DNA from: an uncultured Patescibacteria group bacterium
GTDB lineage: Bacteria > Patescibacteriota > Microgenomatia > UBA1400 > PJMF01
Direction: 5' to 3'
Length of the DNA stretch: 64,000 nt
Assembly: GCA_905478415.1 (NCBI GenBank)
Contig: CAJQIG010000001.1
Coordinates: 8,818 to 72,817 of the forward strand
The position numbers were made by a program, and so were the translations under genes. Numbering within the stretch: the stretch's first letter is position 1; every line of letters begins with the position of its first letter. Shown here one piece after another: positions 822 to 36,256 of this stretch. The notes under the pieces were generated by a model that saw nothing but the letters and a program-made list of their open reading frames with translations, had not been told where the DNA came from and did no database searches.

Positions 822-1020
822 CAAAAGCTTGTATTAACGCTGGTTCAATGTTGAACTGAGGGTATGCAAAACTCTCGAGAAAAAAAACGATGTGAGCCCA
901 TTGTCCCTCAGTTGGAACACCTCTTCAAGAGCATTTTACATACATACTCCAGACTAAAAGAGCTTGGATTTACCTATTTTGATGGAACCGTGAGTATAAT
1001 TGAAACGGAAGGAGATTCTC

Positions 1021-1494
1021 ATGACTAGTTTGAGTGGTAAAAATGAGGGGAAATTTATTTCTCATTTATTCGATGAGAAATCGTTCTATTCTTCTTTTCT
1101 TTCTGATTTAGAAGACTGTGAGCATGAAGTAATAATTGAGAGTCCATTTATATCTAAGTCTCGAATGGATGTCCTTCTGCCCTTCTTCAGGCGATTGGTG
1201 AATCGAGATGTGACTGTGTACGTAATAACTAAAGACCCAAGCATTCTTGATGAACCATTAGCTTCGTATTCTCGAGAGATCATTCGAGAGTTTGAGATGT
1301 TGGGTGTGCATGTTTTGGCTACTGCAAATCACCACCACAGAAAGCTGGCTATTTTGGATAGGCAGGTTTTATGGGAAGGAAGTTTAAACATTCTTTCGCA
1401 ATCGAATAGCAGAGAAATTATGAGAAGAATCCAGGGCGAAGAACATGCACAAGAGATGTTTGAGTTCTTAAAACTTGGCAGATTTATAGAATAG
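1021..1494 (+). CDS. PLD-family (single HKD) nuclease, Nuc-like
   Basis: HxK(x4)D motif in HHHRKLAILD followed by the GSxN element (EGSLNILSQSN). ATG at 1021 is preceded by a GGAGG RBS; the track ORF begins at a TTG at 1000. Confidence 0.65.
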   Translation: MTSLSGKNEGKFISHLFDEKSFYSSFLSDLEDCEHEVIIESPFISKSRMDVLLPFFRRLVNRDVTVYVITKDPSILDEPLASYSREIIREFEMLGVHVLATANHHHRKLAILDRQVLWEGSLNILSQSNSREIMRRIQGEEHAQEMFEFLKLGRFIE

Positions 1495-1522
1495 CAAGTA
1501 TGCGTTACAATACAGGCAGATT

Positions 1523-1747
1523 ATGACAAAGAAAAACACTGGTTACCAGATTAACGAAAAAGATATAGAGGCTACCCTAAAATATCTGAAATTGAATGGT
1601 GAGCTTGAAGCTACCCGTGAAGATGCAATTCAATATCTTGAAGAACATCAAGTAATGGCACATGTAGCGGCACACAAGATTGTTGAGGATGAACAACTCG
1701 CTATAGCACCAAAAAAGGAAGTAAAAAAGCTAGAGTCAGGTGACTAA
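1523..1747 (+). CDS. hypothetical acidic 74-aa protein
   Basis: ORF only; no recognisable motif. Confidence 0.25.
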   Translation: MTKKNTGYQINEKDIEATLKYLKLNGELEATREDAIQYLEEHQVMAHVAAHKIVEDEQLAIAPKKEVKKLESGD

Positions 1748-1950
1748 AAATCCAGAATATCAGAAGATCTAACTTTTAAAGCTTTGGCAATATCTTTAAG
1801 CACCTCCAGAGAAGGATTTTCTTCATCACGCTCTATGCGAGCATAATAATTTGAGCTAATCTTTGCTCTCTCAGCCAACTCAACCTGAGTGAGTTGTTTT
1901 TCTTTTCGTAGTTTTTTAAGGTTTTTTCCTATTTTTGTTTTTGGTGGCAT
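1744..1950 (-). CDS. XRE-family helix-turn-helix transcriptional regulator
   Basis: LKKLRKEKQLTQVELAERAKISSNYYARIERDEENPSLEVLKDIAKAL is the classical Cro/C1 HTH pattern. Confidence 0.7.
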   Translation of the reverse strand: MPPKTKIGKNLKKLRKEKQLTQVELAERAKISSNYYARIERDEENPSLEVLKDIAKALKVRSSDILDF

Positions 1951-1958
1951 AGTAGTAT

Positions 1959-3749
1959 TTATTTATTCCAAATGTGAATTTTTTTAACTAGTTCATTTAT
2001 TTTTTTATTCAAGTCAGTACCTTTTTCAAAGGTCTCTTTGTTAATGTGTTTGATTAATTGATTTGCAGCATCAACTTTAATATAGGAAGTTGAAAGATTG
2101 CTTATCTTGGTATATTTACTCATACCTTGAATATTTAAAATAGATTCAAAAGTTTCTGATGGTACGTAGTTTTCAATTTCTCTACCTTGAGTTACCCAGA
2201 CCATTGCATTATCACTGAGGTTATTTATTTCAGAACGAATTCTTTCTTTGGTTGCATTGATTTTGTCTGTTTCTTTTGTTTTGTCGCTATCGATAATTAC
2301 AGCAATATTTCTATTTAGTTTAACAAGATTAATGAAATCACTAACCTCTTCATTTTGATCTGCGGTAACTTGCGCTGATAAATGACTGAGTAGTTTACCG
2401 CCATAAAACATGATGCTGTAGTGAATGCCTTCTTTTAAAGATTCATCTTTTAGATTAATCCAGTGATTAATTAAAATTCTGTCTGACGGACCTTCTACCC
2501 AAATTATTCCGTTTGTTTGTAATATGTCGCTAGCTTTTACCCCAAGATCATCTAATACGGACTGAAGAATCTTTTCATCAGCTTTGTTAATATTTGTTAA
2601 GCCATTATTTGTAAATACTCTGTAAATGCTACTGCTTTCATCTGTAAATGAGTTAATAAGAACACTAGAGTGCGAACTTATCAAATATTGGTGATCGGTT
2701 TTATCTCTCAAAAAATCAATAAGTCTTCTTTGCATTATTGGATCTAAATGTACTTCTGGTTCCTCAAGAGAAATCAATGAGTTATTTGGTGAATATAGAA
2801 TATCAACTACTAGCACAATTAATTCTTCAACACTTGAACCCCATGATTTATATGACATTATTTGACCATCAACATCTTTTTTGGGCTCTATTAGTAGGTG
2901 AGATTTATCATTTGGAATTACGATTTCTACTTCAATATCAAGCAGATCAGAAATAAACTGGTTGAGAATTTTATATTTTTTTCTGTGTTGTTGATATGAA
3001 TTTTTTGGGGAACTCCAGTCAGAAATCATATCAATTACTCTACTTCCATTGAAGTCTAGCTGGTTGATAATGCGACTTGCTGTGTTCCCATCATCCTTGT
3101 CTGATGTTCCGCCAATTTTTCTGACAGCTTTTATCATCCTCATTTGATTATGAAATGCCTTGAGTTGATTTAGCATTACCCAGAGGTAATTAAATTTTCC
3201 AGATCTAGTGCCTGAAAATTTTCCATAATCATCATTAAATTGTGACTCATTGAATGAACCAACGGCTTGTCTGAAAACTTTTTTATGAGTGGAAATTAAT
3301 GGTGTATCATTCCAAATTAACTCATTTAGGTTGAAGTGGAGTTGATTTTCGTTTTCGATACCAACGCTTATAGCGAGAGTTATTAAGTTCCTATCATTAT
3401 TAAAAAGCTCTGCTTGGAAAGTTTTATTTTCTCCAGAAAAGCCTGATAGAAGTTGCTCCTTTTCATCATCAGAAAAGGAGAATGATATTGAGAAATCAAG
3501 GCTTTTATCTGTGTTAAAAAAGTCTTCTACACTAGAGTGTGAGTTATTTATGCTAGGAGTAATTGAACCAGATAATGATGGAATCTTTCTAAGAATATCT
3601 GAAATAAAAGGCACTATTCTAATTATGTTAGATTTTCCAGCATTATTTTCTCCAATGAATAAATTAAATCGTTGAAGATCATTAAGTTCAAGATGTGCAT
3701 TAGAACTTATACTCCTAAAATTTCTAATTTTTATGTTTGTTACTTTCAT
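1959..3749 (-). CDS. OLD-family ATP-dependent endonuclease (N-terminal ABC-type ATPase, C-terminal Toprim); solo, class-1-like
   Basis: Walker A LFIGENNAGKSNI just after the N-terminal IKIRNFRSI; Walker B/D-loop LISLEEPEVHLDP; H-loop SSHS; Toprim IIWVEGPSDRIL, DxD IAVIIDSDKT, EIENY. 596 aa, similar in size to P2 Old. Confidence 0.7.
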   Translation of the reverse strand: MKVTNIKIRNFRSISSNAHLELNDLQRFNLFIGENNAGKSNIIRIVPFISDILRKIPSLSGSITPSINNSHSSVEDFFNTDKSLDFSISFSFSDDEKEQLLSGFSGENKTFQAELFNNDRNLITLAISVGIENENQLHFNLNELIWNDTPLISTHKKVFRQAVGSFNESQFNDDYGKFSGTRSGKFNYLWVMLNQLKAFHNQMRMIKAVRKIGGTSDKDDGNTASRIINQLDFNGSRVIDMISDWSSPKNSYQQHRKKYKILNQFISDLLDIEVEIVIPNDKSHLLIEPKKDVDGQIMSYKSWGSSVEELIVLVVDILYSPNNSLISLEEPEVHLDPIMQRRLIDFLRDKTDHQYLISSHSSVLINSFTDESSSIYRVFTNNGLTNINKADEKILQSVLDDLGVKASDILQTNGIIWVEGPSDRILINHWINLKDESLKEGIHYSIMFYGGKLLSHLSAQVTADQNEEVSDFINLVKLNRNIAVIIDSDKTKETDKINATKERIRSEINNLSDNAMVWVTQGREIENYVPSETFESILNIQGMSKYTKISNLSTSYIKVDAANQLIKHINKETFEKGTDLNKKINELVKKIHIWNK

Positions 3750-3773
3750 TAATTGTATTGTATCAATATAGTG

Positions 3774-4391
3774 TTAGTTTGTACCTTGTAATATAGTTTT
3801 CGGATTCACAGGTATTCCATACACCCTTATTTCAAAGTGCAAATGAGGACCTGTAGACCATCCAGTACTTCCCATTTCTCCGATTGAATCAGTCACTTTT
3901 ACTTCCTGTCCTTCATAAACTGTAATTCGATTGAGATGAGCGTATACAGATGTAATATTGTCTCCATGATCAATAATTACGTGTTTTCCATATCCCCAAA
4001 AAATCTCGCCAGCATAAGTTATAGTCCCATCCATAAAGGGTGATATTTTATCTCCCACTTTGCCCTGTGAGTTGGCAATATCTATTCCTGCATGAAACTT
4101 TTGGTAACCACTAGATTTAGCAAACTCAAGTGTAGTTACACCCTGAACAGGCCAAGTAACTTTTTTTGATACTTCTTTAACAACAGATCCGTCTGCAGGG
4201 TTTTTTATTTGAATAGTCTGTGTTTCGGGTTCAACATCTATCAGTGCGTCTGAGACAATGTTGATACCTGTGTGCATCAGAATAACTACTGCAATTATTG
4301 GCAGAGATATTAAAACCAAAAATGAAAACGCTACAAACTGCAGTTCTCGTCTAAAAGACCAAATGGTGTGAGCGGTAAGTACTGCATGCAT
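3774..4391 (-). CDS. M23 family metallopeptidase (LytM-like), membrane-anchored; probable T4SS cell-wall hydrolase
   Basis: N-terminal TM segment; HAGIDIA ... HLHFEIR zinc-binding motifs of M23 peptidases; sits in the T4SS operon. Confidence 0.75.
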   Translation of the reverse strand: MHAVLTAHTIWSFRRELQFVAFSFLVLISLPIIAVVILMHTGINIVSDALIDVEPETQTIQIKNPADGSVVKEVSKKVTWPVQGVTTLEFAKSSGYQKFHAGIDIANSQGKVGDKISPFMDGTITYAGEIFWGYGKHVIIDHGDNITSVYAHLNRITVYEGQEVKVTDSIGEMGSTGWSTGPHLHFEIRVYGIPVNPKTILQGTN

Positions 4392-6206
4392 CTACAAATA
4401 TAAATCTTTCGGATCAGTGGTTAACATTGGATGTTCTTTTTCTGAGGCTACTATTTTGACTGCAACATGATTTTGATCAGCTATGATCAGTGCCTCACCT
4501 CGATCACAAGTGAGCAAGAATTGTTGTTCGTATTCACTCAAGTTAAATTCCTGCACTACTTTTTTGATTGATGTAGTATCCTGCTTCATTAGAATTCTCA
4601 ACGATGATTGAGATGCAATTGCTCTGCCATATTCTTGATTTAAAAAGTCATTAGCTTGCTGGGAAATAAGTGTGACTCCTAAGTAGTGTTTACGAGCACG
4701 TCTGACTAGTCCTGCCAAAAACCTCGCACTCTCTTCATGTTGTAAAAGCAGCCAAGCTTCATCAATGACGAGAATTCTTTTCTGAGGATTTGATTTCACT
4801 TCTGAGTGCACGAAGTTAGCGGTAACCAGAATCATAATTTGCCTGAGTGACTCATCCAAGTCTTTAATATCAAAAATGACTAAGCGGTTGGAAAGATCCA
4901 CATTCGTTTGTGAATCAAAAACACTGGAAAGTGAGCCAGACACAAACTTATCCAGCCTGTGACACAGCTCTTTTTGTTTCATTTTCTTAAGCACTTTATA
5001 GAAGTCTTTGAGTAGTGGGAATTTCTGATCTGCTTCGTAGTTTCGTTTTCGCATGCTGATACCAAACTGTTTGTAGGTTTCAATCAAAGCTTTATCGACT
5101 ACAGCTCGTTCTTCGTCAGTCAGTGACCTTGCCATTAGAGAAATAATTTCAGTCAGATCTTGAATATGTTCAGCCAATCCATTTTGACCTGTAAATGATT
5201 TGAGTGAAAAATCAAAAGGGTTAATTTTTTCTTTGGAGGTAGCAGATAGCCTGATATAGGTACCTTTAACTGATTTTGCTAGCTGTTTGTATTCCCGCTC
5301 TGGATCGATGACAATGACTTTGGTTTGTTGCATCAGTTGTCTTAAAATCTCGACTTTTGCAGTATAGCTTTTACCTGAACCTGACTGAGCAAAAATAATA
5401 GAGTTAGCATTGTTGAGTGAAAAGCGATCTACTATTACCAGCGAGTTATTCGACTTGTTAATGCCATACAAAATACCAGACTCTTGCACTAGTTCTGATG
5501 AAACAAATGGAAAAGTTAGTGCAGCACTAGAGCTATCTAGGTTTCGTTTTTGATTCAATTGGTTTTCACCACGTGGCAAGATGGATTGCAAACCTTCAAG
5601 TTGTTGGAAGGTGGCAGTTTTGATGTAAAACATTCTAGAAGCCATGATGGTTTCAATTACTTGAGTTGTTTTATTAAGCTCTTCCAAACTGTCAGCACTC
5701 AACGTCATATAGATGGAAATTTGAAACAGTTTTTCTTGTCCTCTTTGAATTTTGTCCTTAAGCTCCATAGCAGATTCAAGCGGATCAGTAATTTCAGATC
5801 CAATTACTTTTCCTGCCTTGAGCATGCTTCGTTTAGTTGACTCAAGCTCGGTGATTTTACGATTTAATTTTGGCAATGCCATCAGAGGATCAACATGCTC
5901 AATATGATAAGAGATATCTAGGTCATGGTTGAAGTTGATCAACATATTCAGCCAACCAACATTAGCAACATATGGGTAGCCAGAGATAAACAGCGTTCGT
6001 ACAAACGTATCACCTATTTGTAGGTAGGTTGATTCTTCCATCAGACCTGAGTAAGAAATTAAATCAACCTGATCTTGTTCTCCAAAACTAAACTGAAGTG
6101 AAAGGCGTTCCCTTCGGTTTTTCTCCTGTTGGGTTTTAAACTTTCGAACCTTTTTTCGTTTCCATTTTTGTAAGTTGTGGTAGTGGGTTTGAACATTGTT
6201 AAACAT
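4392..6206 (-). CDS. virB4: VirB4/TrbE/TraE-family conjugal transfer ATPase, C-terminal ATPase part
   Basis: Walker A IIFAQSGSGKSYTAKV, Walker B VIDEAWLLL; length and order typical of VirB4. The N-terminal domain is encoded by the overlapping upstream ORF. Confidence 0.8.
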   Translation of the reverse strand: MFNNVQTHYHNLQKWKRKKVRKFKTQQEKNRRERLSLQFSFGEQDQVDLISYSGLMEESTYLQIGDTFVRTLFISGYPYVANVGWLNMLINFNHDLDISYHIEHVDPLMALPKLNRKITELESTKRSMLKAGKVIGSEITDPLESAMELKDKIQRGQEKLFQISIYMTLSADSLEELNKTTQVIETIMASRMFYIKTATFQQLEGLQSILPRGENQLNQKRNLDSSSAALTFPFVSSELVQESGILYGINKSNNSLVIVDRFSLNNANSIIFAQSGSGKSYTAKVEILRQLMQQTKVIVIDPEREYKQLAKSVKGTYIRLSATSKEKINPFDFSLKSFTGQNGLAEHIQDLTEIISLMARSLTDEERAVVDKALIETYKQFGISMRKRNYEADQKFPLLKDFYKVLKKMKQKELCHRLDKFVSGSLSSVFDSQTNVDLSNRLVIFDIKDLDESLRQIMILVTANFVHSEVKSNPQKRILVIDEAWLLLQHEESARFLAGLVRRARKHYLGVTLISQQANDFLNQEYGRAIASQSSLRILMKQDTTSIKKVVQEFNLSEYEQQFLLTCDRGEALIIADQNHVAVKIVASEKEHPMLTTDPKDLYL

Positions 6207-6819
6207 AATTGTGCTGTAGTATTGCTTTCATAGTAGTACTGGTTAATTCTTGAGTTTTTATCTGGCCTTTGTTGTAGAAGCTATAAAAGAGATGGAGGAC
6301 TTCTAAACTATCAAGCTTTCTGGCTTTCATCCCAAGTTTTTCTAGAGCTTTAATTACCATATCTTGAGTTAAATTGAGTTGAGCCTGTGCAAGCTCAAAG
6401 GTATTGCCTTTGGTTTCTGGTTTGTAAGGTAGGACGATGTAAAACCTTCGAGATAGAATTTTGTTGCCAGATACAAGCTGGCGAATAAACTGGGTGTAAT
6501 CACTAATTTGTTCTAGATATTGCTTCTCATTTTCTGTTTCCTTGAGTAAGTCGATGGAATCAACGTATTGATCAATATCCACTTCACGAATACGAATCAA
6601 TATTTGTAGTTGGGAAGGTAGTGAGTTTAGAAATGTTTGAAAGCTATCAATCAACACATCCTGTTCGGCTTCACTCTTGAGTTCGAAGTTAACTGAGGAC
6701 GTTTCAATAACTAGTCGATGCTCGTTGTTTGGTAAAACCAAAATCCCGTCACGCACTTCTTTGATGGCAATTTGGTTTCGAGAGCTAACTTTATTAAGAG
6801 ATTTTTTCAAAGGCCACAT
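6199..6819 (-). CDS. VirB4 N-terminal domain encoded as a separate ORF (split or frameshifted virB4)
   Basis: IAIKEVRDGILVLPNNEHRLVIETSSVNFELKSEAEQDVLIDSFQTFLNSLPSQLQILIR matches the conserved N-terminal region of VirB4/PrgJ/TrsE. Overlaps the ATPase ORF by 8 nt (ATGTTTAA). Confidence 0.55.
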   Translation of the reverse strand: MWPLKKSLNKVSSRNQIAIKEVRDGILVLPNNEHRLVIETSSVNFELKSEAEQDVLIDSFQTFLNSLPSQLQILIRIREVDIDQYVDSIDLLKETENEKQYLEQISDYTQFIRQLVSGNKILSRRFYIVLPYKPETKGNTFELAQAQLNLTQDMVIKALEKLGMKARKLDSLEVLHLFYSFYNKGQIKTQELTSTTMKAILQHNYV

Positions 6820-7300
6820 TGAGTCCTCCTTTCTTGCCAGAACGATAGGTTAGATTGAAATCAGTTTTTTCTAGAAGATGGCGTAGTTTCAGTACATCTT
6901 TAATATCAGGTGTAGCAAGGTATTTTTGTACTTCTTTTTCAAGCTGTTCCTGTTTAACAGTTACTGTTTGAACTTCTGGCTTTATTATTTCTCGATTAGT
7001 TGCTGAATTCTTGTTGTAGATGTAATACTTTGGCCTTGCGTTGTATCGAATCAATATGCTAAGCCAACTGGCGATGATTCTGCCTTTGACTCTGACAGCA
7101 AGCGTGATGCTTAAAACAGCAAAGATGCACGTTAGAACAAGCTTATAGATAACAAAAGTCATGGTAGGTGGTAGGAAAGCGTAGATAAATGTTGCAATCA
7201 AGACTGGCATGAGTAGAAGCATGATTTGTGTCAGACTAAAGTTGCCTGCAATCTTATCTTCTACTGTAGTTATTTGAGCTGGTATGACTTGACTTCTCAT
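6794..7300 (-). CDS. VirB3-like small membrane protein
   Basis: 168 aa with hydrophobic segments, immediately upstream of virB4 as in Gram-positive and minimal T4SS. Confidence 0.4.
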   Translation of the reverse strand: MRSQVIPAQITTVEDKIAGNFSLTQIMLLLMPVLIATFIYAFLPPTMTFVIYKLVLTCIFAVLSITLAVRVKGRIIASWLSILIRYNARPKYYIYNKNSATNREIIKPEVQTVTVKQEQLEKEVQKYLATPDIKDVLKLRHLLEKTDFNLTYRSGKKGGLNVAFEKIS

Positions 7301-8598
7301 ATGTTTACTACCTTCTTTGATACTTTGGCCGCTGCATTCTGAGCTTGTGCCCTGCTGGCAGTTGCAGCGTTATCTGTAGTCATCACGTTAATAATTTGGT
7401 TCCCGAGTTTTTTCATTGCTCCCGAGTTAGCGGTGTACATGACCATCTGCATCATGAGATTTGGAGTTTTGAGTAAGGTGATAAAAAGTCCGATTCCCAC
7501 TGCTATTGAAATGATCGAGTTTTCACTATGGTCTGGAAGAGTCAAAAACGAGCTAGCTAATTGAATTATCACCACATGGACAAAAACAATAAAAATACTG
7601 ACAAGATACGTTTTTATGGCAATCAAGGCAAAGTCTGAAAATTTAGGTAGGGCTGAAAGTAAGAAAATAAAAGGTGACAAAACTGCTCCAAGGGAAATAA
7701 AGATCAAACGGCTGATGTACATAAGCAGTAGCACTATTGAGACAATTAAAAACAGCACCATGAAGATCAAAATTATCAGGGGTGTAGTTCCAGAAATGAC
7801 TGCTGTTGGATTAAAAGCAGCTTCAATCCATGCATGGTTCAGTCCTCCTGTTGAATCTAAGATAACTTTCACCAACATATTGCAGGTGATAATGGCGTAG
7901 TCTGCTAGGAAGAGTGAGATGTTAGTGGCTAAGAAAGTTAGCCCAAGTCTTGGGAGAAGTTGTTTGAGCTCCACTTCTTCAAAACCAAACGAACTTGCAC
8001 TCATAACTTGTAAGCCCATCAGAGCCACTACCAAGATAAATAAAGCGTCCACAATACCGACTGAAATAAACCAAAAATTACGAACCACCTCATTGTCTAA
8101 AAGTGTTGGCGTGGTTGTTAAATACCCAAGCACTCCATTGACAATTGGTTCAGTAGAGCTTTCAACAATGTTTTGGATAAAGCCACCTATGGCATCAATT
8201 AAAACTTGAGTGAGTCCTTCGGATGGTTCAACTGTTTCAATGCTGACAATATCAATCGGTGTGCCAGACCCAGAGGTATTTTGAGAATTCAAAGCATGTT
8301 GGAATACAGAAGTAACCACGTTTGCAGCTAAAACCAAAGTTAAACCAATGACAGCATTGCGAATAGTCTTCTTGGCAGATTCAAGAACTTCGGGTTTTCC
8401 AGCTGAGGTGATGTAGAGATACCCTGCTTTAACTAAAAAAAAGACCGCTGATGCGGTCGCGATTAGAGTGATGATTTGTAATGTACTATTTGTGTATTCT
8501 ATGACATCGGGATTGGTTGATTGAGCAAAAACAGGAGAACTAAACAAAAGGAAAGCAAGTGCGGTTGTTCCAATAGTTGTTAGTACTCTTCTCATCAA
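7297..8598 (-). CDS. VirB6/TrbL-like polytopic membrane protein with N-terminal signal peptide and a pilin-like domain
   Basis: Signal peptide ...SPVFAQS. Residues about 40-95 are paralogous to the adjacent 113-aa pilin (GYLYITSAGKPEVLESAKKTIRNAVIGLTLVLAA vs GYITSSGNPEALEKSKKTILYSAVGLTLVLGA). At least 6 further TM segments, glycine-rich. Confidence 0.55.
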   Translation of the reverse strand: MMRRVLTTIGTTALAFLLFSSPVFAQSTNPDVIEYTNSTLQIITLIATASAVFFLVKAGYLYITSAGKPEVLESAKKTIRNAVIGLTLVLAANVVTSVFQHALNSQNTSGSGTPIDIVSIETVEPSEGLTQVLIDAIGGFIQNIVESSTEPIVNGVLGYLTTTPTLLDNEVVRNFWFISVGIVDALFILVVALMGLQVMSASSFGFEEVELKQLLPRLGLTFLATNISLFLADYAIITCNMLVKVILDSTGGLNHAWIEAAFNPTAVISGTTPLIILIFMVLFLIVSIVLLLMYISRLIFISLGAVLSPFIFLLSALPKFSDFALIAIKTYLVSIFIVFVHVVIIQLASSFLTLPDHSENSIISIAVGIGLFITLLKTPNLMMQMVMYTANSGAMKKLGNQIINVMTTDNAATASRAQAQNAAAKVSKKVVNI

Positions 8599-8620
8599 TA
8601 CGTATTCCTTTTCTAATCAA

Positions 8621-8962
8621 TTACATTCCAGATCCAAATGCAGTGGTTGCGACTTGGCTTACCATATTTGAAATAACAAACGCACCAAGTACTAAAGTAA
8701 GTCCGACTGCGGAGTACAGAATAGTTTTTTTGGATTTTTCTAATGCTTCTGGATTTCCTGAGCTCGTAATGTAACCGACACCACCCCAGACGATGAAGCC
8801 TGCTGCTATAAAGCCAGACAAGGTGACCATGATCTGAATCACTTCTTGGATAAAAGATTGAATTTGTCCCACTTCAGCCGACTGAGCAAAGACTGGATTA
8901 GCCACGACTAAGGAAGTAAGAAATATGCTTTGGAGAACTATGAGTTTTTTCATAAACACCAC
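8621..8962 (-). CDS. VirB2/TrbC-like pilin
   Basis: 113 aa, signal peptide ending VFAQS, two hydrophobic helices, conserved SSGNPEALEKSKK motif as in T4SS pilins of Gram-positive/minimal systems. Confidence 0.5.
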   Translation of the reverse strand: MVFMKKLIVLQSIFLTSLVVANPVFAQSAEVGQIQSFIQEVIQIMVTLSGFIAAGFIVWGGVGYITSSGNPEALEKSKKTILYSAVGLTLVLGAFVISNMVSQVATTAFGSGM

Positions 8963-9216
8963 CCTTTCACTAATTAAAGTATGTTGGGCAGGTGTTACAA
9001 AAAAAGCTACCTCACTAGTGGGCAGCTCTTGTTATAACGCTTTACTTTTGGTTGTAAATTGTATCAGATTATATCAGTAGTCTGGTGTATATCAAGAGAG
9101 AAATGTGATTTTGATATCCCGTAACTCTTGAGGTTGTACTATAATGGTGATTGTTAACCGAGATTTTTATATGAATCTTAATAATATATTTAGTCAAGAA
9201 AACAGAAAGCACAATT

Positions 9217-10794
9217 ATGTCTGGAGAACAAAAACGATTACTTGAAAAACAACTTTGGGCTGTAGCCAATGTTCTCCGGGGAAAAATGAATGCAGACGAA
9301 TATAAAAACTATATTCTTGGCTTCATTTTCTACAAATATCTTTCAGAAAAACTTGCTCGCTATATTGACGAAAAACTTCTGGCTAGTGAAAAATTCTCTT
9401 TTGCAGAGGTAGACGACTCAACTGACGAAGGTCAACATATTGTTGAGCATATTAAGAAAGCTACCATTGATCACTTGGGCTTTTTCCTCAAACCTACAGA
9501 GCTTTTTTCTTATATTGTCAGAAAAGGTAATGGCGAGATTAAAGGCCATGATACTTTTATTTTAGAAAACCTCAAAAATGTTCTTAACTCTATTGAGCAA
9601 ACCTCAATGGGCACAGCGAGTGAAGATGATTTTAAGGGACTATTTGATGACGTTGATTTAACATCCACAAAACTTGGTAAGTCAGAGAACAAAAAGAACG
9701 AGGTGATTGTTGAGGTTCTTACTTTGCTCAGTGGTATTGATTTTAAACTAGAAGACACCAAAAGTGATTTGCTCGGTGATGCTTATGAATATCTTATCGG
9801 TGAATTCGCAGCAGGAGCAGGCAAAAAAGGTGGTGAATTTTATACACCAGCTCAAGTTTCAAGACTTCTTGCAAAGATTGTGACCCATGGCAAAAAACGA
9901 GTTAAATCTGTTTATGACCCAACCTGTGGTTCTGGCTCTCTTCTTCTAAGAATTGGTGAGTATGCCGATGTTGTTTCCTACTATGGACAAGAACTTAACC
10001 CAACCACATATAACCTTGCTCGCATGAACATGATATTGCATGGGGTGCACTTTGATCATTTCAGCATTCGAAATGGAGATACCCTCGAAGATGACATGCA
10101 TTTAGACTTACAAGCAGAAGCAGTGGTGGCTAATCCTCCTTTTTCTGCAGACTGGAAAGGCGATAAAGATCCGACTCTAGCTCATGATGAAAGATTTGCT
10201 CAGTATGGAAGACTTGCTCCAAAAGGTAAGGCTGATTACGCATTTGTAACTCACATGCTTCACCATCTTTCAGATAGTGGAACAATGGCAGTGGTGCTAC
10301 CACATGGTGCACTGTTCAGAAGTGGCGCCGAAGGTACAATTCGAAAATATATTATTGAGAAGCAAAACTACCTTGATGCCGTCATAGGTTTGCCAGAAAA
10401 TCTTTTTTATGGAACAGGTATTCCAACTACAGTTTTAGTATTCAAAAAATGCAGACAGGAAGATGATGAAGTTTTGTTTATTGATGCATCCAATGGGTTT
10501 CAGAAGGTAGGTAATCAAAATCAGCTTAATGAGGAGCATCTAGAAAAGATATTTCAAACATATGTAAATAGGAAAGAAGTTGATAAATACTCTCACAGAG
10601 CAAGCTTAGAAGAAATTGTGGAGAATGACTACAATTTAAATATTCCTAGATATGTGGACACTTTTGAGCAAGACGATCCTGTTGACTTGGATTCAGTTTC
10701 AAATGAACTGAAATCTTTGCAGGAAGATGAGGAGAAATTAAAAAAAGATATTACTGACTTTTGCAGAAAATTAGGAATAGAAAAACCTTATTAA
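9217..10794 (+). CDS. hsdM: type I restriction-modification system, N6-adenine DNA methyltransferase subunit
   Basis: N-terminal HsdM domain, NPPF catalytic motif (VVANPPFSADW), AdoMet motif DPTCGSGSLLL. Confidence 0.9.
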   Translation: MSGEQKRLLEKQLWAVANVLRGKMNADEYKNYILGFIFYKYLSEKLARYIDEKLLASEKFSFAEVDDSTDEGQHIVEHIKKATIDHLGFFLKPTELFSYIVRKGNGEIKGHDTFILENLKNVLNSIEQTSMGTASEDDFKGLFDDVDLTSTKLGKSENKKNEVIVEVLTLLSGIDFKLEDTKSDLLGDAYEYLIGEFAAGAGKKGGEFYTPAQVSRLLAKIVTHGKKRVKSVYDPTCGSGSLLLRIGEYADVVSYYGQELNPTTYNLARMNMILHGVHFDHFSIRNGDTLEDDMHLDLQAEAVVANPPFSADWKGDKDPTLAHDERFAQYGRLAPKGKADYAFVTHMLHHLSDSGTMAVVLPHGALFRSGAEGTIRKYIIEKQNYLDAVIGLPENLFYGTGIPTTVLVFKKCRQEDDEVLFIDASNGFQKVGNQNQLNEEHLEKIFQTYVNRKEVDKYSHRASLEEIVENDYNLNIPRYVDTFEQDDPVDLDSVSNELKSLQEDEEKLKKDITDFCRKLGIEKPY

Positions 10795-12039
10795 ATGAAC
10801 AATAATTTCAACATAAAACCCTTATTTCCTCAGCTAAGATTTCCAGAATTCAAAGACCCTTGGCAAAAAAAACAACTTAGCGAAGTTGGAACTGTAGTTT
10901 CAGGTCTGACATACAAACCTTCTGATGTGGTAGATGATGGTATTTTAGTATTAAGGTCTTCAAATATCAGGAAGGCTAAACTTTCTTTCAAAGATAATGT
11001 TTATGTTAATCCCAAAACTGTTTCGTTTAATGCAGTAATGGAAAGCGATATACTAATTTGCGTTCGTAATGGCAGCAAGAGATTAATAGGGAAAAATGCT
11101 TTAGTCGATAAAAATGCTGAAGGATCAGCATTTGGGGCTTTTATGAGCGTATTTAGAAGTGAATCAAATAAATTTATCTTCCAACTTTTTAATTCAGATA
11201 CTTATAAGAAACAAGTTCACAGAAATTTAGGTGCAACCATTAACTCTATTAACGGCAGTGATTTAAAAAAATTCACTTTCGGTTTTCCATCAAAAGATGA
11301 GCAGGAAAAAATTGCTTCATTCCTCGCTTCTGTAGATAATTGGATTGAAAATTTAGAGAAGCAAAAAAACTCGCTTGAGGAATATAAAAAAGGAATTATG
11401 CAAAAAATCTTTTCTCAAGAGATAAGATTTAAGGATAAAAATGGGTGTGAGTACCCTGAATGGAAAAAAATCAAGCTTAGAAAGCTGTCAAAAGTAATTA
11501 CTAAGGGTACAACACCAACTAGTTTAGGTTTTTCATACCTAAAAGAAGGTGTTAATTTCATTAAGGCAGAAAACATTAATCAATACTCAGAAATTTCTAT
11601 TTCAGAAACAATGAAGGTCTCGTCTGAATGTAATCAAGCTTTAAGTAGATCATCTTTGGAAGAAAATGACATTCTATTTTCAATTGCAGGTACTTTGGGT
11701 CGTACGGCGATAGTGAAAAAAAAGGACCTTCCAGCTAACACCAATCAGGCTTTAGCAGTTATTAGATTGAATAGCACTGTAGATGTTTTCTTCATAGAAA
11801 AATTTTTAAATTCTCAAATGATTGAAAAATATATTTTACAAATGCTTTCAGTAGGTGCTCAACCAAATCTATCATTAAAACAAGTTGGAAATATTGAAGT
11901 CAACTTACCATCAATAAAAGAGCAAATGCAAATTGCTTCATTTCTATTTTCAATTGAGAATTTAGTCGAATCAAAAAGCAAGCAAATTACAAAAGCAAAA
12001 GAGTGGAAAAAAGGACTGTTACAACAAATGTTTGTATAG
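10795..12039 (+). CDS. hsdS: type I restriction-modification system, specificity subunit
   Basis: Two target-recognition domains separated by a conserved central helix (LEEYKKGIMQKIF) and a C-terminal repeat (AKEWKKGLLQQMF). ATG directly follows the hsdM stop. Confidence 0.85.
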   Translation: MNNNFNIKPLFPQLRFPEFKDPWQKKQLSEVGTVVSGLTYKPSDVVDDGILVLRSSNIRKAKLSFKDNVYVNPKTVSFNAVMESDILICVRNGSKRLIGKNALVDKNAEGSAFGAFMSVFRSESNKFIFQLFNSDTYKKQVHRNLGATINSINGSDLKKFTFGFPSKDEQEKIASFLASVDNWIENLEKQKNSLEEYKKGIMQKIFSQEIRFKDKNGCEYPEWKKIKLRKLSKVITKGTTPTSLGFSYLKEGVNFIKAENINQYSEISISETMKVSSECNQALSRSSLEENDILFSIAGTLGRTAIVKKKDLPANTNQALAVIRLNSTVDVFFIEKFLNSQMIEKYILQMLSVGAQPNLSLKQVGNIEVNLPSIKEQMQIASFLFSIENLVESKSKQITKAKEWKKGLLQQMFV

Positions 12040-12048
12040 ATAAAAGAT

Positions 12049-14844
12049 ATGGCACAATCAGAACTACAACTAGAAAATGAATTAATAGCACAACTTGGAA
12101 ACTTGGGTTTTGATAGGGTTTCTTTGCCAGATGTTGAATCACTAAATCATAACCTTAAATCACAACTAGAAAAGTTTAATAAAACAACTTTTTCAGATAC
12201 AGAATTCTCTCGCATACTCAATCACCTAGAAAAAGGTGATCGCTTTGTAAAAGCTAAGACTCTGCGTGATAGATTTGTGTTGACTCGAGATGACGAAACA
12301 AAGTTCTGGGTGCGATTTTTCAACATGGATAAGTGGTGTAAAAATGAGTATCAAGTTACCAATCAGGTTACGCAAGCTGGAAGGTATGAAAATCGTTATG
12401 ACGTTACTCTTCTCATAAATGGTCTTCCTTTAGTTCAAATTGAACTCAAGCGCCGTGGCGTTGAAATGAAAGAAGCTTTCAATCAGATTCAACGTTATCA
12501 CAAGCATTCTTTCTCTGGAACCCTATTCGAATATGTCCAGATTTTTATCATTTCCAATGGTGTAAATACAAAATACTTTTCTAATAATCCAAAACAATCA
12601 TTTGAACAAACCTTCTATTGGACAGATGAGGAAAACAAAAAGATCACTCAGCTCAATGAATTTGCAGAAGTATTTTTAGAGAAATGCAAAATCTCAGCCA
12701 TGATAGCTGAATATATTGTGTTACATGAATCACTAAAAATTCCAATGGTACTCCGCCCTTATCAGTACTATGCAGTCAGAGCTATTGAGCAAAAGGTTAA
12801 AGAAACTAACCAGAATGGCTATATTTGGCATACCACTGGTTCTGGAAAAACCTTGACTTCATACAAAGCCAGTCAGATTCTTTCACAGTTACCCGAAATT
12901 AAAAAAGTTATCTTTGTAGTTGATCGCAAAGACCTCGATATCCAAACAACAAAAGAGTTTAATCATTTTTCTGATGGTTCTGTTGATGGCACAGATAATA
13001 CTCGCAACTTAGTAAAACAACTCAAAGATCCTAATAGAAAACTCATCGTTACAACAATTCAAAAGCTAGATATTGCTGTTTCCAGAGAATCGTATCTTAA
13101 ACAATTTGAAGATCTTCAAGATGAAAAAGTAGTCATTATTTTTGATGAATGTCACCGTAGTCAGTTTGGATTAACCCACAATAGAATAAAGAGCCATTTT
13201 AATAAAGCCCAGCTCTTTGGATTTACTGGAACACCTATCTTCGCTGATAACAATGTTGGTGGGGTTACAACAAAAGATGTTTTTGGTGAATGCTTGCACC
13301 GCTACATTATTACCCACGCTATTGATGACAATAATGTGCTTGGCTTTGCAGTTGAGTATGTAGGTAAGTACAAGAAAAAAGACCCTGACACGCTAGATGC
13401 TGATATTTTTGCCGAAACAATGGTTGAAGGAATAGACACTAAAGAAGTTCTTGAAAGTGATGAGCGAATTCAAAAAATAGCTGAGTATATTCTTCATGAT
13501 TGGAGGCGTAAAACAAAGAATGGCAAGTTTAATGCTCTTTTTTGCACTCCAAGCATTGAGGTATTAAAGACATACTACACGCTACTTTCTGCTAAGAAAC
13601 CTAAAGATTTTAAAATCGCTACAATTTTTACCCACCAAGCAAATGAGGATGGTAGTGCAGATATGCTTGATGTTGACGTGTTTGCTGATAAGGATGATTC
13701 GTTAAATCAGCATTCAAGAGACTTCTTAGAAAGCTGTATCAAAAACTACAACAAAGATTTTGGCACTAATTACTCTACTGACCGATTCTATGATTATTAT
13801 CGAGATCTACAGAAAAGAATTAAAAACAAAGAAGTTGATCTAACTATTGTGGTGAACATGTTCTTAACTGGATTTGATAGCCCGAGACTTAACACTTTGT
13901 ACGTTGACAAGAATTTACGTTACCACGGATTAATCCAAGCATATTCTAGAACCAATCGTTTATTAAATTCTGATAAGCCTCATGGAAACATCGTTTCCTT
14001 TAGAAACCTTAAACTGAATACTGACAAAGCTCTGGCTTTGTTTGGTGATGAAAATGCTAAAGAAGTTGTTTTCAAAAAACCATATGAGGTTCAGAAAAAG
14101 GAATTTGAAGAAAAGCTTGCTCACTTACGAGTAAAAGTACCCACTGTTTCTTCAGTTGATGATTTGCGAGGTGAAGAAGATAAGGCTGCTTTTGTTAAAA
14201 GTTTTAGAGATTTGCTTCGTATTAAGTCATCATTAGAAACCTTTGCAGAATTCTCTTTTGATGACTTGGGAATTACAGAACAAGAATTTTATGATTACCA
14301 AAGTAAGTATCTTGATATTCATGAAGAAAGAAAAACTCACGAACCAGAAAAAGAATCTATACTTGATCAAATCGACTTTGAGTTGGAATTAACTGTTCGC
14401 GATGTAGTTGATTTTGATTACATTATTCAGTTGATTGCTGGACTTAAAGACATTAGCTCTGATGTGGTTCGTGAGAAGAAGACTGAAGATATCCTTAGAT
14501 TATTTGATCGCGATGTGAAACTTCGTAAAAAGAAAGAACTCATCCGTAAATTTATTGAAGAGAACCTACCTAAAATTAGAGAAGATGAAAATGTTGAAGA
14601 AGCCTTTGAGAAATTCTGGGCAAGTGAACGCTCATCTGCTCTGCGAGAAGTAGCACAAGCTGAAAATATTCCACTAGAAAAGTTTGAAAACATTATTGGC
14701 GAGTATCTATACACACAAAAACTCCCACATGGACAAGATATTGTTGATCTTCTCCCAGAAGCTCCAAGAATTCTTGAGCGCCAAAGTATTATAGATCGCG
14801 TGAGGAGTGCTATTGAGAATATTGTAGATATGTTTGAGTGGTAG
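12049..14844 (+). CDS. hsdR: type I restriction enzyme, endonuclease/helicase subunit
   Basis: Walker A HTTGSGKTLT, DEAH-box FDECHRS, 931 aa, downstream of hsdMS. Confidence 0.9.
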   Translation: MAQSELQLENELIAQLGNLGFDRVSLPDVESLNHNLKSQLEKFNKTTFSDTEFSRILNHLEKGDRFVKAKTLRDRFVLTRDDETKFWVRFFNMDKWCKNEYQVTNQVTQAGRYENRYDVTLLINGLPLVQIELKRRGVEMKEAFNQIQRYHKHSFSGTLFEYVQIFIISNGVNTKYFSNNPKQSFEQTFYWTDEENKKITQLNEFAEVFLEKCKISAMIAEYIVLHESLKIPMVLRPYQYYAVRAIEQKVKETNQNGYIWHTTGSGKTLTSYKASQILSQLPEIKKVIFVVDRKDLDIQTTKEFNHFSDGSVDGTDNTRNLVKQLKDPNRKLIVTTIQKLDIAVSRESYLKQFEDLQDEKVVIIFDECHRSQFGLTHNRIKSHFNKAQLFGFTGTPIFADNNVGGVTTKDVFGECLHRYIITHAIDDNNVLGFAVEYVGKYKKKDPDTLDADIFAETMVEGIDTKEVLESDERIQKIAEYILHDWRRKTKNGKFNALFCTPSIEVLKTYYTLLSAKKPKDFKIATIFTHQANEDGSADMLDVDVFADKDDSLNQHSRDFLESCIKNYNKDFGTNYSTDRFYDYYRDLQKRIKNKEVDLTIVVNMFLTGFDSPRLNTLYVDKNLRYHGLIQAYSRTNRLLNSDKPHGNIVSFRNLKLNTDKALALFGDENAKEVVFKKPYEVQKKEFEEKLAHLRVKVPTVSSVDDLRGEEDKAAFVKSFRDLLRIKSSLETFAEFSFDDLGITEQEFYDYQSKYLDIHEERKTHEPEKESILDQIDFELELTVRDVVDFDYIIQLIAGLKDISSDVVREKKTEDILRLFDRDVKLRKKKELIRKFIEENLPKIREDENVEEAFEKFWASERSSALREVAQAENIPLEKFENIIGEYLYTQKLPHGQDIVDLLPEAPRILERQSIIDRVRSAIENIVDMFEW

Positions 14845-14857
14845 TAAGGGAAAAAGA

Positions 14858-17116
14858 ATGTATATATCAAGGGTTTACATAAGGAACTATCGCAATTTTG
14901 AAGAGTTTGATTTATTTATTCCTGATGGAAGTCCTTTAACCATTATCGGTGGAAATAATTGTGGAAAAACTAATTTTCTCCAAGCCATCAGGCTTGTTTT
15001 AGATTCTGGCATAGCTCCTTGGGACAAAAGACTTACAGAAGAAGATTTTTGTTGGAGTATAGGTGAAGAACCTTGGAAAAGCGGCGAGCAAATTGTTATC
15101 ACAGTAACTTTTAGCAATGTTACTGATAAAGAGGAAATACAATCACTATTGCACTCAATTGCTCCTGTGTATGACGAGGAGAGTGTTTTGTCTTCTAAAT
15201 CTGCAGATAGTCTGGAAGCTAATATTTCATTTGTGTTTGCACCATCTACCTTGAACAAGGAAGGCGACTATGACCTGATCGAGGACTACATTAGTTTTCT
15301 AGTTGCTGGTCGGTATCATCCTTCTGGATATTATTACCTACCAGACGGTAGTACTAAGGAATATGGTGATACGGTTATTTCTGGCTTATATTCTTGTCCT
15401 AGTAAAGAGGAGTTCTACAAGTATTTTTATTTGTCAGAAGACAATATTAAAAAACTCGAGGATGATTCGTCAGCCACATTTGAAAAGCAACTTGCTAAAC
15501 AGTCGTATCCTAACAAGGTGCGAAAACACATTAATTTACTTGCTCTAGATGCTCTTAGGGATGTCAAAAACGACTTTTACTTCGGTTATCGTTCTTTAGT
15601 GTCACAACTAATCAGAGGCGGCATAAAAAATAGTAAAAAAAACCAGATATCCAAAGAGGTGTCTGCTGCTTTTAAGAACCTTAGAACAAGCGGAGCTATT
15701 CCTGAAGCTAACACCATTCTGGATGATATAGAAACAAGACTACAGAACAAAGACATAAATCTTTTGTCAGATAAAGCAGACTTAATTATTGGTACTCCCA
15801 GAGTCACTCTTGAGAATATCGGTCGCTATTTCAATTTCCTAGTTAATCTTAAGGAAGATTTGAAAAGCGACCAGGACATGGAGACCATTGGTCTTGGTTA
15901 TCAGAACCTTGCGTATATTTCTGCCATTTTTGCCCTTTTTGAACTGAAGAAGGAACTTTCTTTAAATGATACCGATGAGAAAATTCGTATTGTATATAAT
16001 CTGCTACTGATCGAAGAACCAGAAGCACATCTGGATGTTCAAAATCAAAAGTATCTTCATACTCAAATCGAAAACAAGACGCAGAAATTGATGGAAGTGA
16101 AAGCGGCCGATGATGATGAAACTGAGGGTGAAGATGCTCCACAGTTTTTTGCATTTACTCAAGTAATTCAAACTTCTCACTCAACTCACTTAGCTTCCAA
16201 ATCTGACTTAAAAAATCTTGTTGTATTACAAAAAGGTGTCAATCAAGCAAGAGCTATAAACATTGATAGTGTATTACGACTTGATGATGACACATACAGC
16301 CACAATAGGAGAATATTAAAACAGTATCTTGATGCTACAAGGTCTTCATTACTCTTTGCAAGAAAAGTAGTTTTAGTTGAAGGACTCTCTGAAAAATATT
16401 CAGTAGGTACCCTTATTAACACGCATTTAAAGCAACAACGTCCTGAGAGCAATGTTGACATCGATAGCGAAGGAATTGAGGTTGTTGAGGTGGGTGGAAA
16501 GATCTTTGAGCCATTTAATGCCCTTTTTCAGAATGACCAATCTATTGGGCTTAACAACAAATGCTTGAATCTCCGAGATGGAGATTCTCATTTAGAGTCT
16601 CAAGTAGTCGCTGATTATGAGACAAAATACAACGACCTTAATCCTTCCTCTACTACCACACCTCAGCTGGATACTAAAAAAAACATTTACACCTTTGAAA
16701 TCGACTGTTTTTTCTTACCAATACCAGAAGATATAACTAGAAATAATATTGAGTATCTCAAGCTTATTTTGTATAGGTTTATGAAGGATGGAGACTACTT
16801 CAAAACAGATGACACTTTTACAAGGAAACTAGCTGCGATTGATAGCTTTGCCCAAGAGATTGTTAATCATGGAGTAGACAAGGACAAGTTTGAGAAGTTT
16901 TTCACAGATATTCTAGGCCATGAAGTCTCTAAGCCTTCCATATCTTTATATCTGTCCTCTTTGCTGAAAGCTAAATTGCTCGAAGACGTTACTGAAATTG
17001 AAACTTGGGGTGACACTCCGGACACAGAAGTTGGCATTACACCTTTTAGTGACCTGTCTGAGTTCATCATGCCCAAGTACATCAAAGATGGAATCTCATG
17101 GCTAATTACAGACTAA
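14858..17116 (+). CDS. OLD-family ATPase-Toprim nuclease, GajA-like (Gabija / class 2 OLD)
   Basis: Walker A TIIGGNNCGKTN, D-loop LLLIEEPEAHLD, Toprim ARKVVLVEGLSEKY. ATG at 14858 with an AAGGGA RBS 13 nt after the hsdR stop; the track ORF uses a TTG at 14834. The stop overlaps the UvrD-like gene by 19 nt. Confidence 0.7.
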   Translation: MYISRVYIRNYRNFEEFDLFIPDGSPLTIIGGNNCGKTNFLQAIRLVLDSGIAPWDKRLTEEDFCWSIGEEPWKSGEQIVITVTFSNVTDKEEIQSLLHSIAPVYDEESVLSSKSADSLEANISFVFAPSTLNKEGDYDLIEDYISFLVAGRYHPSGYYYLPDGSTKEYGDTVISGLYSCPSKEEFYKYFYLSEDNIKKLEDDSSATFEKQLAKQSYPNKVRKHINLLALDALRDVKNDFYFGYRSLVSQLIRGGIKNSKKNQISKEVSAAFKNLRTSGAIPEANTILDDIETRLQNKDINLLSDKADLIIGTPRVTLENIGRYFNFLVNLKEDLKSDQDMETIGLGYQNLAYISAIFALFELKKELSLNDTDEKIRIVYNLLLIEEPEAHLDVQNQKYLHTQIENKTQKLMEVKAADDDETEGEDAPQFFAFTQVIQTSHSTHLASKSDLKNLVVLQKGVNQARAINIDSVLRLDDDTYSHNRRILKQYLDATRSSLLFARKVVLVEGLSEKYSVGTLINTHLKQQRPESNVDIDSEGIEVVEVGGKIFEPFNALFQNDQSIGLNNKCLNLRDGDSHLESQVVADYETKYNDLNPSSTTTPQLDTKKNIYTFEIDCFFLPIPEDITRNNIEYLKLILYRFMKDGDYFKTDDTFTRKLAAIDSFAQEIVNHGVDKDKFEKFFTDILGHEVSKPSISLYLSSLLKAKLLEDVTEIETWGDTPDTEVGITPFSDLSEFIMPKYIKDGISWLITD

Positions 17117-19041: not shown

Positions 19042-19066
19042 ATATTAAGTAATAAACAATCTATAT

Positions 19067-20578: not shown

Positions 20579-20608
20579 TAAAAATGAAATGTAAGGTAAA
20601 ATTAAATT

Positions 20609-36245: not shown

Positions 36246-36256
36246 ACGATGGGGCC
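36182..36256 (-). tRNA. tRNA-Glu (anticodon TTC), CCA encoded
   Basis: Reverse complement reads GGCCCCATCGTCTATCGGTTAGGATAACAGGTTTTCATCCTGTAGAGCAGAGTTCGATTCTCTGTGGGGTCACCA, a cloverleaf with 7-bp acceptor stem, TTC anticodon and TTCGATT T-loop. Confidence 0.8.

Follow-up and report, generated by a model that had tools for sequence, protein, structure and literature searches.

A stretch of 64,000 nucleotides (nt), referred to below as the window, from an uncultured Patescibacteria bacterium (UBA1400; PJMF01; assembly GCA_905478415.1, contig CAJQIG010000001.1, forward-strand positions 8,818 to 72,817) carries on its minus strand two adjacent genes of a type IV secretion system (T4SS), the first encoding a free VirB2-like pilin and the second a protein of 432 amino acids (aa) in which another copy of that pilin precedes a polytopic domain. 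Judged from its sequence and its neighbors, we take the 432-aa protein to be a VirB6/TrbL-type platform subunit of a chromosomal, monoderm-type (MPF-FATA-like) T4SS, with a paralogous VirB2-like pilin at its N terminus. The two genes, and the parts of the fusion protein, lie in the window as follows.

8621..8962, minus strand: free VirB2-like T4SS pilin, with a signal-peptide-like start (MKK...PVFA/QS, the slash marking the putative cleavage site), two hydrophobic helices and the charged loop TSSGNPEALEKSKKT
7297..8598, minus strand: pilin-VirB6 fusion gene, an open reading frame (ORF) of 433 aa from TTG, probably 432 aa from ATG 8595
8524..8595, minus strand: signal-peptide-like segment of the fusion, residues 1-24, ending PVFA/QS (by inspection)
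8290..8511, minus strand: VirB2-like helical hairpin, residues 29-102, a paralogue of the free pilin (BLASTP, Pfam and AlphaFold2)
8218..8289, minus strand: Ser/Pro/Thr-rich linker, residues 103-126, predicted to be disordered
7297..8217, minus strand: TrbL/VirB6-like polytopic domain, residues 127-432 and the stop codon, containing seven long helices (five or six hydrophobic)

Both ORFs are real. As called, the upstream ORF (8621-8962) encodes 113 aa from a GTG codon and the downstream ORF (7297-8598) encodes 433 aa from TTG; the likelier start of the pilin is ATG 8953, behind AAAGGGTGG, which gives 110 aa, and that of the fusion is ATG 8595, which gives the 432 aa found in nearly all homologues. 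The fusion ORF opens 22 nt past the pilin stop codon.

The first-pass annotation of the locus had claimed that the 113-aa pilin is homologous to the N-terminal part of the 433-aa protein and that both proteins begin with SPVFAQS-type signal peptides; the homology holds, and both proteins do begin with a segment that resembles a signal peptide. In a BLASTP comparison with composition adjustment, residues 18-112 of the pilin align with residues 17-110 of the fusion protein at 37 of 95 identical positions (39%), with 59% positives and one gap (E = 7e-17), and the Smith-Waterman score of the pair, 159, compares with 31.2 ± 5.8 for 2000 shuffles (z = 22; z = 19.6 once the signal peptides are removed). 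Against the remainder of the 433-aa protein, which is equally hydrophobic, the pilin scores just 46. The two proteins have in common a polar loop, GY.YITS.G.PE.LE.[SA]KKTI, or, with both variants written out, GY(L)YITS(S/A)G(N/K)PE(A/V)LE(K/S)(S/A)KKTI, which is the best-conserved part of the domain family-wide; since this loop is shared and the remainder scores low, the similarity exceeds that of generic hydrophobic helices. Pfam model PF18895 (T4SS_pilin; gathering score, 26.6) recognizes the free pilin at 41.8 bits and the fusion at 39.1 bits, and the charged loops of both copies hold E, K, and K. Each protein opens, by inspection, with a basic n-region and a hydrophobic stretch followed by PVFA/QS, as a signal peptide would.

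The free pilin is matched by T4SS_pilin at 1.2e-10, by the TrbC/VirB2 model PF04956 at 6e-8 (33.2 bits; cut-off, 27.9), and by the NCBIfam family of Mbov_0395 pilin-like proteins at 2.7e-10, and its hydropathy segments lie at residues 37-60 and 76-103. In the fusion protein, the T4SS_pilin match spans residues 36-99 and profile positions 9-71 of 71 (8.2e-10; 89% coverage), with hydropathy segments at 37-62 and 80-100. AlphaFold2 (AF2) predicts helices at residues 29-63 and 68-102 joined by the loop TSAGKPEVLESAKKT, with a predicted local distance difference test score (pLDDT) of about 85. Conservation of the fused hairpin peaks in and around this loop, which it has in common with the free pilin: the close family shows no variation at G58, Y59, Y61, S64, G66, P68, K75, G84, and L85, and most of these residues are kept down to about 25% identity. 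The residue preceding the putative cleavage site, A24, is invariant across 49 fusion homologues.

Behind the hairpin, residues 102-126 have a pLDDT below 50 in the AF2 model. Among 88 fusion proteins, the linker between anchor residues 100 and 127 measures 23-32 aa and is exactly 26 aa long in 67, with a column conservation of 0.2-0.3; a fixed length combined with a nearly free sequence is the signature of a length-constrained tether. In two distant fusions, P0157 (498 aa) and P0169 (506 aa), the pilin domain begins at residue ~100-110, and the ~100 extra residues ahead of it may be due to a start called wrongly or may form a second hairpin or some other module.

For the remaining 306 residues, the monomer model of the fusion (109 homologues aligned; pLDDT, 75.2; predicted template modeling score, 0.66; an alignment of 49 close homologues gave a pLDDT of 58.9) places seven long helices at residues 130-428, so that the predicted structure as a whole consists of an N-terminal helical hairpin, a disordered stretch, and the seven-helix part. 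A phmmer search with residues 113-433 alone among 1.84 billion representative sequences returned 487 relatives. When 75 full-length representatives were surveyed, 43 carried T4SS_pilin, 25 matched TrbL_4 (best, 1.2e-12), and 16 matched PF04610 (best, 1e-7); one homologue (P0229) passes the TrbL_4 cut-off at 31.4 bits, and homologues of 38-76% identity, from the close family and its sister clade, hold precomputed matches to PF19590 (TrbL_3) or PF19597 (TrbL_4) beside T4SS_pilin. Weighing against the assignment are the results obtained with the window protein and its nearest homologues: no Pfam TrbL model matches the window protein above its cut-off (TrbL_4 comes to E = 0.19 and 11.5 bits, with a cut-off of 27); a profile of 49 homologues run against all PDB chains found no solved VirB6 and only noise (sarcospan, PsbH); and a Foldseek search of the PDB with the model gave no significant E-value. 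In that search R388 TrwI/VirB6 chains were nevertheless the sole high-probability matches (0.84-0.97; TM score up to 0.45), which lends weak support from the fold, the remaining matches being noise of the G-protein-coupled-receptor type with probabilities below 0.5. Because the window protein alone falls below all Pfam TrbL cut-offs, the VirB6-like label given to it in the first-pass annotation stands by family and context evidence and not by the protein's own Pfam score. By family-level matches and gene context, then, we conclude that the C-terminal 306 residues form a VirB6/TrbL domain of diverged sequence, and the annotation's central claim, a pilin domain duplicated and joined to the N terminus of a VirB6-like protein, is borne out by the T4SS_pilin matches, the TrbL/VirB6 evidence at family level, and the position in the operon.

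The fusion is not peculiar to this genome and is conserved in hundreds of Patescibacterial lineages. At least 862 clusters at 90% identity are homologous to the full fusion protein, and the best 120 of them are all about 430 aa long and carry T4SS_pilin, save three truncated ones (316-373 aa) that do not; with a profile of more distant fusions, 120 of 120 among the matches listed carry T4SS_pilin, in many cases beside TrbL_3 or TrbL_4. When one genome was scanned for each GTDB species, 188 genomes proved to hold a relative. The carriers include, by genome record, Pace-, Shapiro-, Davies-, Levy-, Gottesman-, and Woykebacteria, WWE3, and Saccharibacteria and, by protein source, Nomurabacteria. 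The operon also occurs in mislabeled or contaminated metagenome-assembled genomes titled Pseudomonadales, Gammaproteobacteria, Micrarchaeota archaeon, Methanobacterium, Methylococcaceae, or Anaerolineae (loci L001, L002, L011, L033, L065, L069, and L073 are among the mislabeled carriers).

Gene order is kept along with the domain order. In 76 of 80 loci the gene directly upstream of the fusion encodes a free pilin of ~110 aa; in the other 4 the contig or the called ORF ends short at the pilin position. The full order of six genes (pilin, pilin-VirB6, PrgI/VirB3, TrsD, VirB4, M23 peptidase) is found in 62 of 81 loci, most of the others being interrupted by contig ends. Two loci of the sister clade (L081 and L082; 38-48% identity) have the same order with the free pilin upstream, and in one sister locus a CHAP hydrolase takes the place of the M23 peptidase and a coupling-protein gene comes next. 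In L081, at 9756-11262, a CBASS-like pair (a protein with a CD-NTase C-terminal domain and a Cap15-type effector) directly follows the T4SS operon.

In a tree of the pilin domains, the free pilins (76) and the fused domains (79) form two reciprocally monophyletic clades, and because the copies separate in this way, the duplication is ancient. Free and fused copies from one genome are as alike (31.7% identity) as those from different genomes (31.3%), which, with the clean clades, rules out recent duplication or gene conversion between the copies. The free pilins are more conserved (67.5%) than the fused domains (49%), and the N-terminal domains of 156 of 158 distant fusions score higher with a hidden Markov model of the fused copy than with one of the free copy. 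Duplication and fusion therefore took place once, or at least very early, with both copies kept thereafter, and these data would fit a single old fusion maintained under selection. The most distant relatives of the VirB6 part, which are actinobacterium-like and of high GC content, have N-terminal extensions of ~100 aa that were considered as degenerate pilins and rejected, being a signal peptide and a Pro/Thr-rich spacer with no hairpin; a few relatives of low GC content have a signal peptide only. As these distant relatives are without the hairpin, it is an addition specific to this Patescibacterial clade.

The rest of the operon follows the fusion gene on the same strand, and a candidate promoter precedes the pilin gene.

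9068..9095, minus strand: sigma-70-like candidate operon promoter, TTGATA-16-TATAAT, TG-extended, ~105 nt before the pilin start
6794..7300, minus strand: PrgI/VirB3-like membrane protein, 168 aa (Pfam PrgI, 27.6 bits; cut-off, 27), its start overlapping the fusion stop by 4 nt
6199..6819, minus strand: TrsD-like protein, 206 aa (NCBIfam CD1110 VirB4 at residues 11-178, E = 1.3e-13; TrsD, 1.6e-7)
4392..6206, minus strand: VirB4-family ATPase, 604 aa (P-loop_TraG, 3.8e-22; AAA_10; NCBIfam CD1110-family VirB4, 2.2e-111, above cut-off)
3774..4391, minus strand: M23 peptidase, 205 aa, the last gene of the operon (Pfam Peptidase_M23, 1.3e-30)
8435..8458, minus strand: intrinsic-terminator-like hairpin, GACCGC-AUCA-GCGGUC and then U8, within codons A46-L54 of the fusion ORF

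The candidate promoter agrees with the consensus at 11 of 12 positions and is the best such site in 3500-9300; overall, such sites are no commoner there than in shuffled sequence. The N-terminal part of the PrgI/VirB3-like protein resembles the first ~115 residues of the mycoplasma family of VirB3-VirB4 fusions (NCBIfam Mbov_0397), and its C-terminal half is hydrophilic, with ~70 residues past the PrgI domain; the gene is kept downstream of the fusion gene across related loci, and the TrsD-like gene is kept in at least 70 loci. VirB4 is in effect split, the 206-aa TrsD-like ORF corresponding to its N-terminal ~180 residues and the 604-aa ORF to the rest, with an overlap of 8 nt, and because the same split occurs in at least 60 related loci it is not a frameshift. 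The M23 peptidase is probably the cell-wall hydrolase of the system, an analogue of VirB1. Scans with Pfam and NCBIfam found no VirB5-like gene within the six-gene operon, and no relaxase appeared in Pfam scans of the large ORFs of the window, beyond which no search was aimed at relaxases. The genes found, VirB4 with an adjacent TrsD, a PrgI-type VirB3, and VirB2-like pilins, in a chromosomal location, make up an MPF-FATA-like set, and dnaE, CTP synthase, a class I aminoacyl-tRNA synthetase, and tRNAs share the window with it.

The operon is embedded in a defence island (window positions 1000-3749 and 9217-22858) with genes for a PLD-like protein, an AAA_15 ATPase, a complete type I restriction-modification system (hsdM, hsdS, and hsdR), a DUF2779 protein, a Gabija-like pair (an OLD-type protein with AAA_15 and TOPRIM domains and a UvrD helicase), and a protein combining GmrSD_N and Schlafen/AlbA_2. 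About 23 kb from the operon, an 877-aa ORF (31654-34287, minus strand) with TrwB_AAD_bind and HerA-type P-loop matches may encode a T4SS coupling protein. A serine recombinase gene adjoins it (34518-36245, plus strand) and terminates inside tRNA-Glu (36182-36256, minus strand), which hints at an integrated element.

The terminator-like hairpin within the fusion ORF has a predicted folding free energy of -11 kcal/mol (z = -2.9). Of 75 related loci (among L001-L080), 39 have this element at the very same codons, with proteins that are just 55-70% identical, and about half of the loci are without it. Synonymous codon identity is raised at exactly the hairpin codons; among the variants are a G.U intermediate and one pair altered on both sides, and formal covariation is weak. 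The element might act as an attenuator or partial terminator that yields more mRNA for the free pilin than for the machinery, because 22 nt alone part the two genes, and partial termination would fit a division of labor in which the free pilin is abundant and the platform stoichiometric.

Both pilin copies resemble the VirB2/TrbC pilins (R388 TrwL, Ti VirB2, and F TraA) in having a signal-peptide-like N terminus, two hydrophobic helices, and a short charged loop, and the pilin gene likewise heads the T4SS operon; the second copy differs from them in being not a free protein of ~100 aa but joined to a VirB6-like domain of 306 residues. That domain is polytopic and encoded beside VirB3 and VirB4, as are the VirB6/TrbL platforms (R388 TrwI; PDB 7o3v and 8rt9), and has seven long helices as described for R388 VirB6 (PMC9259494), whereas in canonical VirB6 proteins (about 260-300 aa), as in the unfused relatives, a signal peptide or spacer and not a pilin hairpin comes first. 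Extended VirB6 proteins (the RvhB6/VirB6 paralogues of Rickettsiales and the MPF-FA VirB6 proteins of 700-900 aa) also consist of a VirB6 core and an extra module (PMC12857230). Their extensions are large, hydrophilic, and central or C-terminal; the addition found here, by contrast, is N-terminal, ~100 aa long, hydrophobic, and homologous to a subunit of the same machine, and the C-terminal tail is short. A parallel is offered by PrgF and PrgH of pCF10 and other Gram-positive conjugative systems, where, also in a monoderm T4SS, a small two-helix pilin-like protein is predicted to sit on a VirB6-like pentamer (bioRxiv 10.64898/2025.12.18.695078), but these are separate proteins, while in the window one pilin copy is fused to VirB6 and the second is free. 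The fusion of adjacent, interacting T4SS subunits in one polypeptide has a precedent in VirB3-VirB4 (Campylobacter; the Mbov_0397 family of mycoplasma integrative and conjugative elements) (PMC12102498), although other subunits are involved and VirB3, TrsD, and VirB4 are separate in the window. The Patescibacterial T4SSs described by Quinonero-Coronel et al. in 2025 (PMC12102498) and the essential system of Southlakia epibionticum ML1 share the gene set (VirB2-like, VirB6, PrgI/VirB3, TrsD, VirB4, hydrolase), are chromosomal, and have no relaxase nearby.

What a pilin domain would do on a VirB6 protein can be considered against the R388 machine, in which the pilus has a VirB6 pentamer as its base, helix alpha1 of VirB6 (the recruitment site) co-evolves with VirB2, and five VirB2 subunits make up a C5 ring, the first layer of the pilus, atop VirB6 and under the VirB5 cap (PMC9259494), and against the model of the Gram-positive VirB2-like PrgF on pentameric, VirB6-like PrgH (bioRxiv 10.64898/2025.12.18.695078). 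A role of the fused domain at the pilus base, one of two specialisations suggested by the first-pass annotation, is plausible. The other, that of an adhesin, has no support and is rejected, since the added module consists of a hydrophobic hairpin and a 26-residue linker without an extracellular binding domain, or extracellular domain of any kind. In the mechanism that we propose, the protein would be exported by Sec, its signal peptide would be cleaved, and the hairpin would insert so that its two ends are outside and the loop that contains KK is inside, the outward position of both ends following from the cleavage and from the placement of the loop; the 26-residue linker would then run on to the extracytoplasmic N terminus of the VirB6 domain. 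Such a topology agrees with the signal peptides on unfused relatives of the VirB6 part. It also fits the N terminus of Agrobacterium VirB6, which Jakubowski et al. reportedly placed outside the cytoplasm in 2004.

Since VirB6 proteins form pentamers, a pentamer of the fusion would bear five tethered hairpins, equivalent to one layer of a five-start conjugative pilus, and these would be placed next to the N-proximal helix of VirB6, with which VirB2 co-evolves in Gram-negative systems. The tethered ring could serve as a permanent pilin adaptor or seed that docks the abundant free pilin and templates its polymerisation on the platform without a VirB5 cap, with energy from VirB4 acting with TrsD and PrgI/VirB3, a proposal to which we give slightly less than an even chance. 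The higher conservation of the free pilin fits what would be expected of a polymerising subunit, as the linker of fixed length and free sequence fits what would be expected of a tether. That the hairpins go as far as making up the pilus's fixed zeroth layer, as a C5 seed replacing the VirB5 cap or nucleator missing from monoderm Patescibacterial systems, we regard as doubtful. Several considerations weigh against the adaptor proposal: (i) the AF2 model is that of a monomer and of moderate confidence (pLDDT, 75); (ii) if pili grow by insertion at the base, the ring on its 26-residue tether must stay there, and new subunits would have to pass it; (iii) pilus production by Patescibacterial T4SSs is unproven (PMC12857230); and (iv) the current evidence is fitted equally well by a hairpin that only recruits pilin.

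Under that last explanation, which we consider rather unlikely, the hairpin would stay in the bilayer beside the VirB6 helices and enlarge or replace the pilin-binding site, passing free pilins on to the machine while itself remaining outside any filament. The VirB2 recruitment site of R388, helix alpha1 of VirB6, is itself embedded in the membrane (PMC9259494), and the fused domain lies just N-terminal to the equivalent part; a tether of 26 residues is short and favors closeness, and the lower conservation of the fused copy than of the free pilin suits a non-polymerising role. However, the loop that would line the lumen of a pilus, which the free pilin has as well, is better conserved than any other part of the fused hairpin, and passive docking would not obviously need it. 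The same residues bear on the idea that a captured pilin contributes no more than a signal peptide and two membrane-spanning segments by which VirB6 is oriented and anchored, so that the hairpin would have pilin ancestry without present function. The N terminus of VirB6 needs export signals in any case, because unfused relatives open with a signal peptide, some with a Pro/Thr-rich spacer in addition, but a plain signal peptide is evidently enough in those relatives, and Y61, S64, G66, P68, and K75, which a mere anchor would be expected to lose, are nearly invariant to ~25% identity, with 43 of the 75 representatives still reaching the Pfam pilin model; we therefore find this idea improbable.

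A further explanation is cleavage of the linker, by which the fusion would be a polyprotein that frees a second, minor pilin and a conventional VirB6. The linker is predicted to be exposed and disordered, and T4SS pilins of the VirB2/TraA type do mature proteolytically. Arrays of several free pilin genes, described from other Patescibacteria (PMC12102498), speak for it too. It has to contend with a linker that contains no conserved cleavage motif (its columns are 0.2-0.3 conserved and its length is fixed), with an operon whose only protease is the M23 cell-wall peptidase, and with the fact that a separate gene would do the same, yet the fusion is kept in hundreds of lineages, and we judge it very improbable. 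An artefact, in which a sequencing or assembly error or a frameshift joined a second pilin gene to virB6, found nothing in its favor, has a likelihood close to nil, and is ruled out, since 79 independent loci, taken from different assemblies, and at least 860 protein clusters share the uninterrupted ORF of ~430 aa.

The domain combination is visible in precomputed Pfam matches, so the fusion is present in databases but apparently has not been interpreted. NCBI names some of the ~430-aa fusions (e.g., P0034 and P0358) "pilin" and others "hypothetical protein," leaving the VirB6 part unannotated. A survey of 3,035 Patescibacteria genomes described free pilins and pilin arrays and mentioned no fusions other than VirB3-VirB4; it reported "VirB2 arrays" of two or more genes to be abundant in Microgenomatia and VirB6 to be scarce, "suggesting extreme sequence divergence" (PMC12102498). 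Its criteria for VirB2 (PF18895, independent E-value below 0.001, more than 50% profile coverage) (PMC12102498) would, we infer, score the window fusion as VirB2 (8e-10; 89% coverage) and probably not as VirB6. We found no description of a VirB2-VirB6 fusion in the searchable full-text literature, which took in this survey, a 2025 nomenclature review (PMC12857230), the preprint on Gram-positive pili (bioRxiv 10.64898/2025.12.18.695078), and a paper on a Ced system, and the fusion is apparently undescribed so far.

To conclude, the recruitment of VirB2 to VirB6 and its polymerisation there form the least-resolved step of T4SS pilus biogenesis, for which the current model draws on co-evolution analysis, docking, and mutagenesis (PMC9259494). 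A long-conserved fusion of the two partners is independent evolutionary evidence for their direct contact near the N-terminal part of VirB6, and it provides a 1:1 construct for structural work. If the hairpins do form a layer at the pilus base, the fusion would be a natural "Rosetta stone," fixing a VirB2-VirB6 contact that has been proposed but never seen in Gram-negative machines. For the Patescibacteria, whose T4SS is essential in the sole system tested, recognition of the fusion as a VirB6 corrects the database label "pilin" on a 430-aa protein and fills an apparent gap in lineages of the Microgenomatia type, where some of the reported two-gene "pilin arrays" are probably a pilin and its platform, and it would, if true, account for the seeming absence of VirB6 from Microgenomatia.

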